DNA of 7,115 nt, taken from the IMG/VR virus record IMGVR_UViG_2609459852_000006. One strand, 5' to 3'. The first letter of the stretch is position 1, and each line of letters opens with the position of its first letter. Source of the DNA: a virus (Duplodnaviria > Heunggongvirae > Uroviricota > Caudoviricetes). The notes under the pieces are model-generated. The model worked only from the letters and a program-made list of their open reading frames with translations, was not told where the DNA came from and made no database searches. The position numbers and the translations under genes are program-made. Below are positions 1 to 7,115 of the stretch, piece after piece.

Positions 1-265
1 CAGAAATAAATAACGCGTCGCCGGAAGCCACGTCATAAACCGTTTTACCCCGATGATCTTCAACGAGATGCCACGATGCCTCATCACTGTTGAAAACAGC
101 CACGAAGCCTGCCGGAATATCTGGCGGTGCAATATCGATACTGTTTGCTGGCAGACCTGTATGAGGCGGAATATATGCGTCACCTTCACCAATAAATTCA
201 TTAGTTCCGGCCAGCAGATTATAAATTTTTATGGTCCGTGGTTGTTCACTCATTCTGAATGCCAT
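1..265 (-). CDS. tfa: Tail fibre assembly protein (lambda Tfa-like chaperone), N-terminal 88 codons only; CDS continues past the low-coordinate edge of the window
   Basis: Manual reverse-complement translation from the ATG at 265..263 gives [88 protein letters not shown]..., which matches lambda Tfa as I recall it. No stop before position 1, so it is absent from the ORF track. The start ATG overlaps the stf stop (TAATG). An alternative in-frame ATG lies at 253..251 (MSEQ...). Confidence 0.9.
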
Positions 266-3200
266 TATGCAAGCCTCACAATATAGTTAAATGCGATGTT
301 TTTGACGGTGTTTTCCGCGTTACCAGCAGCGTTAACGGTGATGGTGTGTCCATGTGAACCAATCGCAACGGAGTGCGTATGAGCACCAATACCGACAGTA
401 TGCGCGTGTGCACCTGCAGATGCTGCTGTGCCGGACAGTGAGTGGCTATGATTACCATCTGTACTGGTATTAGCTAACCACCCCGTAGACATACCTACTG
501 AGCCTTGTACACCCCAGGTATTTTGACCTGAGCTTGTATAACCATATTGATAAGTATCTTTAAAAACACTGGGGTTAAATCGACGGCCATCTCTATGGCT
601 GTGATTACCAGCTGCATTCGTGCTGCCACTTAAACTATGGGTATGCGCACCAGTGTTATTCGTGGATTTAGTGCCGTAATCAAACGACGATGTGGTTTTC
701 GTCCCCAAATCCGTACTGGATGCGCTGGCGCTGTGGGTATGCGATTTAATGCCGTCCTGTTCCTGAGACAATACGGCCCGACCACTGGTAGGTTTGCCCT
801 TAATCGTCCAGCCACGCATATCAGGGATCACGCCTGACGGATAAGCCGCTGCAAGTTTCGGGTATGCAGATTTGTCAAAAGTCTGCCCCTGCATCAGGGC
901 ATAGCCAGACGGAACGGTATCTGATGGCCACGGGATTGGTGCGCCAGGCGGATAAAACTGCTCTGATGGCGTATAGAGTGAATAAACTGTACCGTCCGTT
1001 AACCCTTCCGGCTTATTAGCAGAATATGCTGGTGACGTATGAATCGTCACGCTGGCATTACTGGTATAATCCCATTGAATATTTACACCAGTCGCATAAT
1101 TTCCGATTGCAACGTAAATATCGTAAGTATCACCAGATGTATTGACCCAGGCAAAATTTGTAAACCCTGTCGATGTGCGCTGCCATAAAGCACCAGTAAT
1201 CCCCTTCGGATTACCATTACCTGCACGTAAAACAAGTTCAGATATACCTGCCTGTTGAGGTGACCCCACGTTAAATCCAGCGCCACCAATCAACGTAATT
1301 GAAACAACAGAACTCGCCTGTGGCATGGTTACCGTTGCTAATTTGAACCAACCAGCACCACCGCTGAATGACATTGTTGTTGAGTTAAGCGTACCAATAT
1401 CTTTCGGCGTCAGTGTTATATCCGCTGAAAGCGCCTTACCATTCACCTTACGGGCAGAAGGTACCCGACCATTCGCATTGTCATTAGCTGCTTTCACTGC
1501 TTTCGGTGTCGCAGCAAGCGTTTCAGATGTGCTGTTGGTTGCACTACTGAGCTGGACAATTCCTTTTTGTGCTGTCGTAGCGTCCTGTGCGGTGTATTTC
1601 CCGTTAGCCAGGTCATACGCGGCCTTAACGGCTTTTGGCGTTGCCGCCTGTGACTCGGAAGTGCTGTTAGTCGCACTGCTGAGCTGAACTATCCCTTTCT
1701 GTGCTGTCGTTGCATCCTGTGCGGTGTATTTCCCGTTAGCCAGGTCATACGCGGCCTTAACGGCTTTTGGCGTTGCCGCCTGTGACTCGGAAGTGCTGTT
1801 AGTCGCACTGCTGAGCTGAACTATCCCTTTCTGTGCTGTCGTTGCATCCTGTGCGGTGTATTTCCCGTTAGCCAGGTCATACGCGGCCTTAACGGCTTTT
1901 GGCGTTGCCGCCTGTGACTCGGAAGTGCTGTTAGTCGCACTGCTGAGCTGAACTATCCCTTTCTGTGCTGTCGTTGCATCCTGTGCGGTGTATTTCCCGT
2001 TAGCCAGGTCATACGCGGCCTTAACGGCTTTTGGCGTTGCCGCCTGTGACTCGGAAGTGCTGTTGGTCGCACTGCTGAGCTGTACTATCCCCTTTTTCGT
2101 CGTGCTCGCATCCTCAAGCGCCACGGCGGATGCAATATCCTCTGCCCGTTTTGCTGCTGTCTCGGCGCGCGTTGCCGCGGATTCCGCCGTACTTTTGCTC
2201 TGTGCTGCCGCTGCCGCACTGCCAGCAGCCTCTGTCGCCTTCGTGGATGCCGTCGTGGCGCTGCCCCTCGCTGCTGACGCCTGTCTGGTCGCCTCATCTT
2301 TTGAAGCAGACGCAGATGATGCCGATGACGCCGCCGAACTGGCGGACGATGCGGCAGCCGTTTTTGAGGATTCTGCGCTGGTTTCCGACGCTTTCGCGTT
2401 CGTTTCGGATGTCTTCGCTGCGGAAGCAGACCTCGCTGCTGCGCTGGCCTGTTCAGTGGCTTCGCCAGCCTTCGTTGTGGCTGTTGAAGCGGATGATGCG
2501 GCGCTTTCTGCCGATTTTCCGGCGGCGGTGGCACTGACTGCTGCCTCCTCTGCCTTAATGGACGCCTCACGGGCCGATGATGCAGCTGCTGTCTCAGAGT
2601 CTGCCGCAGCTGAGGCGCTCTGTTCCGCTGCCGTTTCAGAAGACCTGGCATTCGTCTCGGACGTTTTTGCCGCCTTCACGGAATTTCCTGCCGCCGTTGC
2701 CGAGGAGGCTGCACTGCTGGCGCTTGTGGAGGCGTTCGTTTCTGATGATTTTGCCGCCTCTTTGGAGGCCGCCGCATCTCTGGCTGAAGTGGCGGCTTCT
2801 GACGCTTTCGTCGTCGCAGTGGATGCAGAAGTGGCTGCTGATTTTTGTGACGCTGCAGCATTCGTTTCTGACGTTTTCGCCGCACCGGCACTGGTGGCCG
2901 CCGCGCTTTTTGAGGACTCTGCAGCGGCAGCACTTTTTGATGCTTCAGTGGCCTTTGTTGATGCCGTTCCTGCGCTGGAAGACGCCTCCTGAGCCGAAGT
3001 CGCGGCCTGTCCGGCTGACGTGCTGGCTGCACGCGCTGAGCCTGCAGCATCAGTCGCATGGGTTGCCGCCTCACGGGCAGATGTGCCGGCATCACTGGCT
3101 GACTTCTTCGCGGCTGCCGTGTTCTGTGCCACCGCGGACGCGTTACGCGTCACCTCTTCCACCATCAGTTCAAAACGGCGCAGAGCCTCCGGACGGGCAT

Positions 3201-3489
3201 CATCCTCCGTCATGGCACCGAGAAAATCATTCAGCGTACCGGGTCGGGAATCTTCATACACGGTGATGGTCCCGGCATGTGACGGCGGGAATCCTTCCAC
3301 CAACAGAATAACGCTGTACTGACCGTACTCAACGTCCATGCTGTAACGCCCGGCTTCATCCGGATTTTCTGAGGCCAGCGTGTTCACCACCACCGTGGTG
3401 CTGTTACGTTTTGCTTTCAGCTGGATTGTGCAGTTCTGTACCGGTTTTCCTGTGCCGTCTTTCAGTACACCTGAAATCTTTACTGCCAT
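265..3489 (-). CDS. stf: Side tail fibre protein (lambda Stf-like), intact 1074-aa single ORF; N-terminal tail-attachment domain, Ala/Ser/Thr-rich shaft, five tail-fibre repeats, divergent central segment, conserved HxH-rich C-terminal tip
   Basis: ORF track 265..3495 (-). The track's first codon is GTG at 3495..3493; the conserved start [26 protein letters not shown]... is the ATG at 3489..3487, preceded by GTGGGGTGAAT. The C-terminus ...[29 protein letters not shown] matches the lambda Stf C-terminus from memory. Stop TAA at 267..265. Confidence 0.95.
1480..2094 (-). repeat. In-frame tandem repeat inside stf: four near-identical 132-bp units (1567..1698, 1699..1830, 1831..1962, 1963..2094) plus a degenerate partial fifth unit (~1480..1566); each unit encodes a 44-aa tail-fibre repeat
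   Basis: The string gtgcggtgtattt recurs at 1587, 1719, 1851 and 1983, an exact 132-bp period. The two central units are identical by eye and the outer two differ at a few, apparently synonymous, positions. The protein shows [44 protein letters not shown] four times, then [29 protein letters not shown]. Confidence 0.9.
2095..3150 (-). other. Ala/Ser/Thr-rich low-complexity shaft region of Stf (approx. residues 115-465), GC-rich and internally degenerate-repetitive ([24 protein letters not shown] motifs recur)
   Basis: Translation is dominated by A, S, T, E and K with recurring short motifs. The same DNA yields several long spurious ORFs in other frames and on the plus strand (1988..2992, 2085..2651, 2130..2537, 2577..3266, 2676..3095), typical of GC-rich GCN-codon tracts. 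Confidence 0.8.
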
Positions 3490-3492
3490 ATT

Positions 3493-3498
3493 CACCCC
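3493..3498 (-). promoter_or_regulatory. Probable Shine-Dalgarno element for stf (minus strand GTGGGGTGAAT-ATG)
   Basis: G-rich purine tract 3-5 nt upstream of the ATG at 3489 on the minus strand; imperfect match to AGGAGG. Confidence 0.45.
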
Positions 3499-3500
3499 AC

Positions 3501-3527
3501 AAAAAAGCCCGCCTGAACCGGCGGGCT
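3501..3527 (-). terminator. Rho-independent terminator between lom and stf (minus-strand orientation)
   Basis: GC-rich inverted repeat agcccgcc (3506..3513) / ggcgggct (3520..3527) with 6-nt loop tgaacc. On the minus strand the stem is followed directly by TTTTTT (plus-strand A-run 3501..3506). Lies 26 nt downstream of the lom stop. Confidence 0.7.
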
Positions 3528-3553
3528 GTCATAACACTGTGTTACCTGGCTAA

Positions 3554-4153
3554 TCAGAACTTATAACCGACACCCACGATGAAACCGTCAGTGCGCCAGT
3601 CGCCACTGCCGGAGCCTTCATAAGCAATATCAATGGCCACGGATTCGGTCGGGTTAAACTGCACGCCAGCTCCCCACGCCAGAGACGTGTTGCTGTGGCG
3701 ACCGTCATCACTTCCGGTCAGCACGTCGTGCGTTTTCCCCTTGTTGTCAGTTACGCGGAGATAATCCCCGGAGAAAGTCGACACACGGCTGTAAGCCACA
3801 CCCGCCATCGCATACGCGCTGAACCATTCATTCACGCGCACAGACGGCCCCGCCATTACGCTGAACCAGCGGTTACGAACGGAATCTTCATGCCAGCGAG
3901 TATCGCTGTAATGGGTCAGCTGGCGATTCTTGTCTCCTGCATAGCTGAATGACGTCACCAGCCCCAGCGTATCCGTAAACTCATAACGGTATTTCACGTT
4001 AATCCCGTTCAGATCATCACTGCCGGGAACGTTGGTCCGGGCATGAAGATACCCCGCGCTCAGCGTGGACTGATGTTCAGACGCCCATGCAGGCGCACCG
4101 GATACGGCCAGACAAATGGCTGCGGACAAAATGGCGGCACAAACTTTACGCAT
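3554..4153 (-). CDS. lom: Outer-membrane beta-barrel protein Lom (Ail/Lom/PagC/OmpX family), 199 aa with N-terminal signal peptide; lysogenic-conversion (moron-type) gene
   Basis: ORF track 3554..4153 (-): MRKVCAAILSAAICLAVSGAPAWA|SEHQSTLSAGYLHA...GFIVGVGYKF. It has a signal peptide with an AxA cleavage motif and a C-terminal aromatic residue (F) typical of OMP beta-signals, and is near-identical to lambda Lom as I recall it. RBS GAGAGG 5 nt upstream of the ATG. Confidence 0.95.
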   Translation of the reverse strand: MRKVCAAILSAAICLAVSGAPAWASEHQSTLSAGYLHARTNVPGSDDLNGINVKYRYEFTDTLGLVTSFSYAGDKNRQLTHYSDTRWHEDSVRNRWFSVMAGPSVRVNEWFSAYAMAGVAYSRVSTFSGDYLRVTDNKGKTHDVLTGSDDGRHSNTSLAWGAGVQFNPTESVAIDIAYEGSGSGDWRTDGFIVGVGYKF

Positions 4154-4158
4154 AATTA

Positions 4159-4164
4159 CCTCTC
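4159..4164 (-). promoter_or_regulatory. Shine-Dalgarno element for lom (minus strand GAGAGGtaattATG)
   Basis: Plus-strand cctctc at 4159..4164 is GAGAGG on the minus strand, 5 nt upstream of the lom ATG (4153..4151). Confidence 0.6.
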
Positions 4165-4174
4165 GCTTTTCTGC

Positions 4175-4201
4175 AATAAAAAAGGCGTCATTCCTGACGC
4201 C
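4175..4201 (-). terminator. Rho-independent terminator immediately downstream of J (minus-strand orientation; position corresponds to the terminator after J in lambda)
   Basis: Inverted repeat ggcgtca (4184..4190) / tgacgcc (4195..4201) with loop ttcc. On the minus strand it reads GGCGTCAggaaTGACGCC followed by TTTTTTATT (plus-strand A-run 4178..4183). Lies 23 nt downstream of the J stop (4226..4224). Confidence 0.65.
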
Positions 4202-4223
4202 ATTTATTGGGGTTATAAATATT

Positions 4224-7115
4224 TCAACGAATACTGATGCCGGAAGCCGCTTTTTTGGTCACAATCACCGTACAGTCGGTGATATTGCCTGCCCCCTGAT
4301 TGCCTTTCTGGAAAATCTTAAACTCCAGAGTGACGCTACCACCACCACTAGGCATATCAATAACTGCACTGTAACTACCGGGAATGGCCCCTTTAGTTTC
4401 TCTGGATGCGATTAATACGCCGTTTTTGCGAACTTCAAAACCATAACCCGTGTATCGCGTGCCTCCCGGGTTATTTCCGCTCCCCGGATCGTCATACGCT
4501 ATACCGTTAAAAATAATGGGCGGAATAATAATCTGGCGGTCAAAGTTATGATCATCGCTGATGGTGACTGTAACCGTACCGTTTGGTGTTTCCGTGTTAC
4601 CCCACGTACCGACTTTTTTCGGGAAGGCTTTTGATACAGCTTTAACGAAATCCCCTCTGACCTGGGTCGCCTCCAGCATGCCCTTAATCGTACAGTTTTC
4701 ATTTACCGTGACATTGTTGAGCGTTCCTGAGTTCGCATTCACACTACCACTGATATCCGCATTTTTAGCGGTCAGCTTTCCGTCTGATGTCAGGGAAAAT
4801 ACCGGAGGACTGCCACCGCTGGTAATGGTGGGGGCTGTCAGGCGCTTCAGGAACACGTCGTTCATGAATATCTGGTTGCCCTGCGCCACAAACATCGGCG
4901 TTTCATTCCCGTTTGCCGGGTCAATAAACGCGATACGATTGGCGGCAACCAGAAACTGGCTCAGCTTGCCTTCCTCCGTGTCCTCCATGCTGAGGCCAAT
5001 ACCCGCGACATAATGTTTGCCGTCTTTGGTCTGCTCAATTTTGACGCCCCACATAGCATTCCATTTATCGTTAGCGTCCTTCCACTCTTTCGAAAACTCA
5101 TCCAGTCTGCTGGCGTTATCCTCCGTCAGGTCGACTTTTTCCAGCAGCTCTTTACCGAGATGGGATTCGGTTATCTTGCCTTTGAAAAAATCCAGGTAAC
5201 CTTCCGCATCATCGCTCGCCCGACCGACGGCCTCCACGAATGCCGATTTGCCAACGGTGTTCACACTGCGGATATAAAAGTAATAATCATGGCCCGGTTT
5301 GATATTGATACTGGCGGCTATCCAGTACAGCCCCGTGCCAAGGTAGCGGGCTGTGGTTTCAACCTGCCTGATATCGGTAATCCGCGTTTCCGAGAACCAG
5401 AACTCAAACTGTACCGTCGGATCATAAACCGCAAGATGCGGCGTGGCGGTTATCTGAAAATAGCCCGGCGTCAGCTCAATCCGCGACGGCGCTGCCGGGG
5501 CGGCAATCCGGAACGATACCGACGCCGGATCGCCCTGCTGTCCCCGGGCATTTACCGCCCGGACCGTCAGCGTGTAACGCCCCAGCGCCAGTTGCCTGAA
5601 GCGGTAAGTGGTTTCCGTCGTCCGGGCCGTGCTGACCAGCCGCTCACTGCCGTCATCGGCGGCCACGGTCAGGCGAAGCATAAAGCTCACGCCCTTCACC
5701 ACCTTCGGCGTATCCCAGCGCGCCAGCACCTGGTATTCCCCGCTGTCTGCGGTGACTTCGGCGGTCAGGTGCTGCACCGCTGGCGGCGTGACACCATTCA
5801 CCGTGCCGCTCTGGTCGCCGTCAAAGTGCGCCCCGTTATCCACGATGGCTTCTTTTTCCGGTACATGCTGCACGGCGGTGATGGCATACGTGCCGTCGTC
5901 GTTCTCACGGATACTCACGCAGCGGAACAGGCGCTGGCGCAGCGTCGGCAGCTTCAGCCCCCACACGCTGTATTCAGCAACGCCGTCAGGAACACGGCTC
6001 ACTTTCACCTTCACGCCGTCGGTGACGGACTGAACCTCCACGCTGACCGGATTGCCACTTCCGTCAACCAGGCTTATCAGCGTGGTACCGGAGGATGGCA
6101 GCGTGATTTCACGGTCGAGCGTCAGCGTCCGGGTCTGGCTGTTTACCGCCAGCACGCGACCACCGGTGCTGATACCGGCATAGTCATCATCGCAGATTTC
6201 AATGACATCGCCCGGTACATGGCGAAGCCCTTCAGCACCCACGCTGAAGTCCACGGTCTGCGTTTCCAGCAGTTCCGTTTTAATCAGCCACAGCCCGGCG
6301 CGGTGCGCCTGCCCCCGGCTGGTACAGCCAAAGGCATCCATCTTCGTGACGTTACGACCGTAACGGGCAATGGCCTGCGTATCTTCAACAAGCTCTGTCG
6401 CCGTCTCCCAGCCGTTATCCGGGTCAATCCAGTTCACCTCAACGGCATTATGGCGGTCCTTCAGGGCGCTGAAACTGTAGCGGAACGGCGCGCCATCATC
6501 CGGCATCACCACATTACTGCGGTTATAGGTCCACACCTTATCTGATGGTCGGTCCTGCACGAACGTCAGCGTCTGCCCGTTCCATACCGGCATACAGCGC
6601 ATCGCCGAGCAGAAATCACTGAGCACATCCCACGCCTTACGCTGTGTGGTCAGGTAGGCATTACAGGTGATGCGCGGCTCCGTGCCGCCAAAACCGTCCG
6701 GCACTGACTGGTCGCAGTACTGGCCGATGACATACAGCGCCCATTTATCCACATCCGCCGCACCAAGACGTTTCCCCATGCCGTAGCGCGGGTGGGTCAG
6801 CATATCCCACAGACACCAGGCCATGTTGTTGCTGTATGCCGGTTTAAACGTTCCGTCCCAGATACCGCTGTATTGCCGCGTCTGCGGGTTATAATTCGAC
6901 GGCACCTGCAGAATGCGCCCGCGCAGATGATAATTACGGCTCACCTGCTGGCTGCCGAACTGCTCCGAATCCACCTGCACGCCGACCAGTGCCGTGTTCG
7001 GGTAGCCCTGTTTCACATCGATGATTTCGGTGTATGACGACCAGAGCGTTTTGTTCTGCAGCTGGTCTGTGGTGCTGTCCGGCGTCATCCTGCGCATCCG
7101 GATATTAAACGGGCG
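4224..7115 (-). CDS. J: Tail tip host-specificity protein J (lambda gpJ-like central tail fibre), C-terminal 963 codons; N-terminus lies beyond the high-coordinate edge of the window
   Basis: The ORF track shows 4224..7097 (-) starting at an internal Met, but the frame stays open to the window edge (7115..7098 reads RPFNIR before [30 protein letters not shown]...). Long stretches such as [33 protein letters not shown] and [40 protein letters not shown] match lambda J from memory. Stop TGA at 4226..4224. Confidence 0.95.

Follow-up and report, generated by a model that had tools for sequence, protein, structure and literature searches.

A non-lambda cassette in the lambda-like side tail fibre gene of an Escherichia coli prophage

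Reports of mosaic tail fibre genes across lambdoid, P2/P1/Mu and T-even phages go back to about 1989-1994, and the early accounts reportedly include Montag 1989, Haggard-Ljungquist 1992, Hendrix and Duda 1992 and Sandmeier 1994. Here we analyse a stretch of 7,115 nucleotides (nt) of viral DNA (IMG/VR record IMGVR_UViG_2609459852_000006), called the window in what follows, whose side tail fibre gene stf carries a central segment unlike that of phage lambda. The closest described system is gpStf of Ur-lambda (774 amino acids, aa), resolved in 2025 by cryo-electron microscopy and tomography (PMC12617516). In this protein, residues 1-91 (StfN) form a dodecameric collar round the tail, followed by a linker (92-101), a proximal coiled coil (102-393), a hinge (394-422), a distal coiled coil (423-525) and then a gp37-like receptor-binding domain. 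The Stf of the window has in common with it the J-lom-stf-tfa position, the PF08400 domain, the proximal shaft, the Phage_fiber_2 repeat, the collar, the HxH needle and the gp37-like tip (71% identity over the last 229 aa). However, Ur-lambda has a hinge and a distal coiled coil where the Stf of the window has a cassette of a repeat unit plus a putative knob, and the number of Phage_fiber_2 repeats is five in the window, one in lambda and two in PhiR42_1.

Comparison with the Ur-lambda-type Stf (KT232076) places the borders of this cassette. In BLASTP, 80% identity is found over aa 1-352 (E 5e-104), the alignment of the Phage_fiber_2 repeat extends to about aa 677, and aa 846-1074 align to lambda 530-774 at 71% identity (E 3e-112), while no high-scoring segment pair (HSP) was found over aa 678-845. 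In nucleotide comparisons, lambda, PhiR42_1 and stfR of E. coli K-12 all lose homology to the window at 1475-1493 and regain it at 945-959, and therefore the non-homologous block is window 961-1473. The alignment to lambda is thus not collinear throughout, as a first-pass annotation made from the letters alone had suspected when it described the N-terminus and the repeat motif as lambda-like and the central segment as foreign to lambda Stf. The amino-acid string quoted there is found exactly in the minus-strand open reading frame (ORF) 265..3495, but it counts 174 aa (window 949-1470) instead of the ~210 aa given. Of the range proposed for it, 850-1480, the low end reaches about 100 nt into the lambda-like collar domain (aa 849-896), so the PF07484 match within that range belongs to the collar at the overshooting end and not to the cassette. 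The further statement that the C-terminal ~200 aa match lambda holds only in part, as there is a second non-lambda patch at aa 942-1013. Conversely, the lambda residues without counterpart in the Stf of the window are 395-529, and the segment replaced is therefore the hinge plus the distal coiled coil. The cassette substitutes for these two elements and no domain is added, contrary to the earlier suggestion of an additional one.

The nucleotide composition changes at the same place. With a G+C content (GC) of 0.453, the cassette lies below both the Ala/Ser shaft (0.618) and the repeats (0.546). At third codon positions (GC3) it has 0.345, and the other regions are higher: 0.558 for the repeats (Fisher p 4e-5), 0.541 for the collar (p 0.002) and 0.517 for the shaft (p 3e-4). 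The profile across stf is hence not flat but steps in GC3 at the cassette, and the segment is indeed more AT-rich than the upstream shaft, as had been noticed at first sight. In the shaft, GC at second codon positions (GC2) is 0.788 and reflects Ala codons. Since GC3 is significantly lower than in the flanks, the low GC of the cassette is more than a matter of amino-acid composition or of the Ala codons of the shaft.

Other Stf alleles hold other sequences at this site, which lies between the last Phage_fiber_2 repeat and the collar. The shafts of K-12 Rac StfR and of PhiR42_1/mEp460 Stf have 94-97% protein identity to that of the window, and over collar and C-terminus the nt identity to the window is 97.7% for PhiR42_1 and 95-97% for StfR. 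The inserts between these conserved flanks are unlike the window cassette, however, being ~250 aa long in PhiR42_1 and ~405 aa long in StfR, where a Gp34_trimer domain is included. Lambda, StfR and PhiR42_1 thus have flanks of 80-98% nt identity, each with a different and unrelated insert, and PhiR42_1 combines a tip at 97.7% nt identity to the window with a different cassette. For the collar DNA from window 945-959 downward, identity is 86% to lambda, 95.6% to stfR and 97.7% to PhiR42_1. Altogether the junctions in use are found at window ~1475-1493, ~1399, ~945-959, ~625-667 and ~451, and those adjacent to the cassette are domain borders.

What the cassette contains was approached by an exhaustive phmmer search of the 174-aa segment against 1.84 billion cluster representatives, which returned 672 of them at E<=1e-3. 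Segment residues 1 to ~33 occur in other proteins as 4-21 tandem copies without the knob, and residues ~28-167 occur as a separate domain, present twice in some proteins. Read from these match patterns, the cassette appears to comprise two units, a repeat of ~28 aa and the knob. No specific model was found over the cassette in Pfam and NCBIfam, the NCBIfam PrtP match (E 0.017, 13.8 bits against a cut-off of 300) being noise, and no Pfam model matched the ~28-aa unit. PHROGs 3299, 21552 and 6722 match segment residues 1-173, 1-174 and 1-153, respectively (E 5.2e-95, 3.8e-92 and 2.1e-70). AlphaFold2, given 44 homologues, predicts an all-beta monomer of nine to ten strands, at a predicted local distance difference test score (pLDDT) of 72.6 and a predicted template modelling score (pTM) of 0.70, which agrees with the beta-rich module expected from the residue composition. 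In this model the ~28-aa unit forms two short strands of low pLDDT.

The knob is predicted to be a beta-sandwich of the jelly-roll type. Structural alignments of the knob model run at 12-19% sequence identity, and the matches in BFVD are phage tail fibres, gp37 proteins and exopolysaccharide (EPS) depolymerases. In this identity range are WceF of Pantoea stewartii (PDB 6TGF) and the C-terminal domains of Acinetobacter phage tailspikes (6C72, 8OQ0, 5W5P, 6E1R), which differ from the Stf of the window in that they come after a catalytic beta-helix, an element it lacks. WceF has a 137-residue eight-stranded jelly-roll sandwich (531-667) after a short triple beta-helix (PMC7949094), and from the aligned length and the all-beta content this jelly roll may be the domain matched. 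Detectable sequence homology between the WceF-type jelly roll and the knob was not found, as a PDB search with the single cassette sequence gave no match at E<=10. The PDB profile matches (Mu S 8JU3/5YVQ, S16 gp37 6F45, lambda StfN 9E7M) were discarded, because they cover only flanking columns contributed by other alignment rows, outside the knob.

Searches with the segment alone find relatives in fibres of P1-like, T5-like, Felix-O1-like and T2-type phages. By tblastn with the 174-aa query, amino-acid identity is 85% to a fibre of JL22, a P1-like phage (~99% when only the knob core is counted), 63% to a T5-like fibre, and 30-50% to Felixounavirus fibres, T2-type gp37 and Acinetobacter phages. 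In all of these the knob is internal to the fibre and adjoins other module types. It spans aa ~303-458 of 1071 in T5-like phages, 471-612 of 839 in Felixounavirus and 761-865 of 1282 in T2-type gp37, and in these three the tips are of other types. The copies in T2-type gp37, at 40-50% identity, are placed in the middle of the shaft before a Peptidase_S74 chaperone domain, and in those fibres gp38 is the adhesin. The paper on the Felixounavirus Bas63 does not describe the homologous domain. Tip similarity is a different matter: T4 gp37 also has seven di-histidine motifs (PMC12609058). Its tip, with collar and seven HxH motifs, is like the Stf of the window downstream of the cassette, so this likeness concerns the flank and not the cassette.

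The fibre of JL22 (Punavirus), annotated stf, is the nearest of these relatives. It has the same knob-collar-needle-tfa order as the window, with which a single block comprising knob and collar (window 667-1399, JL22 5075-5807) is shared at 91.7% nt identity. On the other hand it is a myovirus baseplate fibre with an N-terminal part unrelated to the Stf of the window, and both the ~28-aa unit before the knob and the tip patch differ. The shared block starts 13 nt past a 602-nt inverted-repeat arm (4461-5062 / 9323-9924) of the Cin-invertible segment. In JL22 itself, the knob is part of the switchable, host-range-determining portion of the fibre gene.

Horizontal module exchange in stf, as the first-pass annotation proposed, is well supported by these comparisons, because alleles with the same flanks hold different inserts, GC3 of the cassette is lower than in both flanks, and relatives occur in the fibres of unrelated phages. 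The explanation that we consider probable as a whole takes the window as the J-lom-stf-tfa end of a lambda-like prophage, situated at the Qin locus in E. coli EC93, with a block-built Stf, a recombined cassette and a mainly structural knob. Stf would be a trimeric side fibre assembled from exchangeable blocks, namely the attachment domain, the Ala/Ser-rich coiled-coil shaft, five Phage_fiber_2 repeats, the cassette, the collar, and the HxH needle with the tip. By homology with lambda, the N-terminal domain would anchor the fibre to the tail, the Ala/Ser-rich region would form a coiled coil, and the gp37-like collar, needle and tip would carry receptor specificity, helped by Tfa. Recombination within the conserved flanks, that is, the last Phage_fiber_2 repeat and the collar, has probably brought the cassette in. 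In experiments, lambda exchanges DNA with the stf/tfa regions of Rac and Qin by homologous recombination (PMC3945230), and the same paper states tail-fibre mosaicism as established. The ultimate source of the cassette may be a lower-GC phage gene pool, which the GC3 of 0.16-0.29 in the homologous segments of virulent T5-like, Felix-like and T2-type phages would fit. In the fibre, the cassette would supply a single repeat layer of beta-hairpin type and, immediately proximal to the collar, a trimeric, globular knob. The knob would form a globular node just proximal to the collar-needle-tip receptor-binding unit, where its main effect would be on distal-fibre geometry, length or rigidity and it would also help trimer registration, and the length and flexibility of the distal fibre would be changed relative to the hinged coiled coil of lambda.

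Several points weigh against this explanation. The comparisons revealed no recent donor: outside the lambdoid phages the best DNA match is that of JL22 at 91.7%, and the relatives in virulent phages reach at most 63% protein identity. The low GC3 could partly come from the codon usage of the module's own lineage and not from recent import. As to the fold, the model is a moderate-confidence monomer while the real protein is a trimer, a conserved Gly-rich loop (segment residues 64-71) has pLDDT <50, and the fold search gives no aligned WceF residues, the assignment to 531-667 resting on length and all-beta content. Finally, the structural role is deduced from position, with which ligand binding by the knob is compatible as well.

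Concerning the role of the knob, a mainly structural one is most likely, because fibres whose tips are unrelated carry the knob in the middle of the shaft, and because one and the same tip is found together with another cassette. Instead, the knob could be a lectin-like accessory adhesin providing a second binding site for the lipopolysaccharide (LPS) core, the O-antigen or another glycan, in which case the swap itself would change host range. The knob does resemble carbohydrate-binding modules (CBMs) and galectins, but only at the level expected of any beta-sandwich, and no ligand-binding residues are identifiable in it. Moreover, in T2-type gp37 and T5-like fibres the domain is mid-shaft and far from the tip, and the combination of the same tip (97.7% nt) with a different cassette in PhiR42_1 suggests that the tip works independently. 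We therefore think an accessory lectin-like role unlikely, though not negligible. Slightly more doubtful is the wider proposal that the knob is a surface-glycan module common to lambdoid, P1-like, T-even, T5-like and Felix-O1-like enterobacterial phages, whose swaps tune host range independently of the tip. If true, a glycan-binding knob would be a new portable handle for fibre engineering.

With regard to the route of arrival, the cassette might have come through site-specific inversion or recombination by Cin/Pin-type invertases and not through homologous recombination in the flanks. The position of the JL22 block next to the inverted-repeat arm of the Cin segment speaks for this, as do the recombinase gene pinQ just beyond tfa in EC93 and the suggestion that invertases drove ancient stf gene transfers (PMC3945230). 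However, a repeat search of window 700-1700 found no inverted or direct repeats bounding the cassette, and a site-specific cassette is therefore unsupported. The breakpoints against lambda, StfR and PhiR42_1 lie in long DNA of 80-98% identity, suited to homologous recombination, and the left junction varies with the comparator (1475-1493 or ~1399), as expected of homology-driven crossovers at several sites. Invertase-mediated arrival is thus improbable here, and homologous recombination in the flanks remains the route that we prefer.

Still much weaker is the view that no exchange took place and that the segment, collinear with that of lambda, diverged past recognition under diversifying selection. 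Distal parts of tail fibres do evolve fast, and the segment lengths are roughly similar (171 against ~135 aa). But the lambda segment is a hinge with an alpha-helical coiled coil while the cassette is predicted all-beta, identity changes abruptly at both cassette borders and GC3 stepwise, a 91.7%-identical copy exists in a P1-like phage with unrelated upstream sequence, and the cassettes of other alleles are 250-410 aa long, so that this view is effectively refuted. As for a chimeric contig, near-identical 132-nt repeats beside the cassette are hard to assemble and the window has two more repeat units than the best complete-genome matches, but since complete E. coli genomes contain the whole window at 99.6-99.8% identity and the cassette is at least 99% identical in 1219 records, an assembly artefact is refuted for the cassette and hardly worth considering, and only the repeat copy number could be an assembly error.

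Outside the cassette, the Pfam scan of Stf gave PF08400, PF03406 five times and PF07484, with PF03335 at the tip marginally below the cut-off (19.1 bits against 20). The PF08400 anchor, the J-lom-stf-tfa order on one strand, and the gp37-like collar with HxH needle are all those of a lambda-type Stf, to which family the Stf of the window belongs. The lambda hinge and distal coiled coil (lambda aa 394-525) found no alignment and have a replacement predicted all-beta. This pair of elements marks the lambda allele and not the family, StfR and PhiR42_1 being without it too.

The cores of the Phage_fiber_2 repeats are at aa 466, 510, 554, 598 and 642, and four of the five are encoded by a tandem array at 1529-2091 (Tandem Repeats Finder, period 132 nt, 4.3 copies, 97% matches). 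The best complete-genome matches span 6851 nt against 7115 here, that is, two 132-nt units (264 nt) fewer, and Stf of EC93 has 986 aa against 1074 aa here. Therefore either the repeat copy number, and with it fibre length, differs among strains, or the assembly is uncertain at this point. Further downstream, the seven HxH motifs are at aa 917, 949, 963, 1014, 1028, 1037 and 1046. Between them lies the second mosaic patch, which has no DNA homology to lambda (gap from 667 to 450) or stfR (gap from 625 to 450), is contiguous with PhiR42_1 only (97.7% identity), and has a GC3 of 0.306. Judged from the sequence comparison, this patch probably sets receptor specificity. As it is non-lambda, OmpC specificity cannot be assumed.

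The ORF listing of the window gives the C-terminal part of J, lom, stf and the start of tfa, every gene on the minus strand (Table 1). Stf proper begins at the ATG at 3489 (MAVKISG start) within its ORF, and the tfa ATG at 265-263 shares 1 nt with the stf stop codon, tfa continuing past the window edge. The EC93 gene, 99.8% identical to stf, is labelled 'prophage tail fiber N-terminal domain-containing protein' in RefSeq. At least 80% of the window is held by 1265 of the 5426 complete E. coli genomes, and at least 80% of the cassette by 1287 of them, about a quarter. In the closest complete genome, EC93, the region adjoins ydfJ, ydfK, pinQ and tfaQ, the Qin prophage locus. There (2382-6265 of the extract) a truncated ydfJ borders the prophage end, and ynfT, ydfK, pinQ and tfaQ lie beside it. 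This is the Qin attachment region of K-12, which itself keeps only a remnant. What the window holds is therefore a Qin-type tail module in intact form.

Rfam detected no RNA family anywhere in the window. On the plus strand, long ORFs facing stf (1325-1687, 1988-2992 and 2577-3266; 120-334 aa) were rejected as genes: they are antisense to the Ala/Ser-rich stf shaft, have low-complexity translations, and are without independent support or Rfam match. Most likely they are artefacts of a GCN-rich repetitive coding strand. In J, the last 250 aa have 58% identity to lambda J. The last ~135 aa (window 4227-4640), the receptor-binding end, are strongly diverged and the preceding ~115 aa nearly identical, and GC is 0.45-0.49 at 4227-4640 against ~0.6 upstream. 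The J end is another module swap, and it suggests a receptor other than LamB. The Lom homologue has only 45% identity to lambda Lom and is annotated in RefSeq as an Ail/Lom family outer-membrane beta-barrel protein.

Table 1. Features of the window, with coordinates in nt of the window and residue numbers of Stf
Feature	Coordinates	Strand	Evidence
Non-lambda cassette, aa 673-843 (171 aa)	961..1473	-	no lambda HSP, DNA homology gap, GC3 0.345
Cassette part 1, one ~28-aa fibre repeat unit, aa 673-700	1390..1473	-	tandem matches in other proteins
Cassette part 2, ~140-aa predicted all-beta knob domain, aa 701-840	970..1389	-	
N-terminal tail-attachment domain, aa 1-134	3088..3489	-	PF08400 phage_tail_N, E 3.6e-71, full profile
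Ala/Ser/Thr-rich shaft, aa 135-455, counterpart of lambda proximal coiled coil	2125..3087	-	lambda alignment
Five Phage_fiber_2 repeats, aa 456-672, left conserved flank of cassette	1474..2124	-	PF03406, five stretches, E 5.6e-89
Collar domain, aa 849-896, right conserved flank of cassette	802..945	-	PF07484, E 6.8e-12
gp37-like needle and receptor-binding tip, aa 897-1074	268..801	-	71% identity to lambda, seven HxH motifs
Second mosaic patch within tip, aa 942-1013, between His boxes	451..666	-	DNA homology gaps
stf, side tail fibre gene, 1074 aa plus stop codon at 265-267	265..3489	-	ORF, Pfam, lom/tfa neighbours as in lambda
tfa (tail fibre assembly protein), 5' part, first 88 codons	1..265	-	translation; tfaQ label in EC93
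lom	3554-4153	-	ORF listing and Lom comparison
J, C-terminal 957 codons	4224-7097	-	ORF listing and J comparison

In view of the long-known mosaicism of tail fibres, the swapped cassette is a clean but ordinary example. There is little new biology in it, as the phenomenon is textbook, about one complete E. coli genome in four carries this exact allele, and the gene is already annotated in RefSeq. Of residual interest is the knob, a common domain of phage fibres that has neither a Pfam model nor a solved structure and whose function is a prediction. What may be of use are the mapped junctions, which are natural, tolerated splice points: the end of the last Phage_fiber_2 repeat, the border between repeat unit and knob, the border between knob and collar, and the His-box borders of the tip patch. 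These could guide the construction of chimeric Stf for lambda-based delivery particles (PMC11338833).

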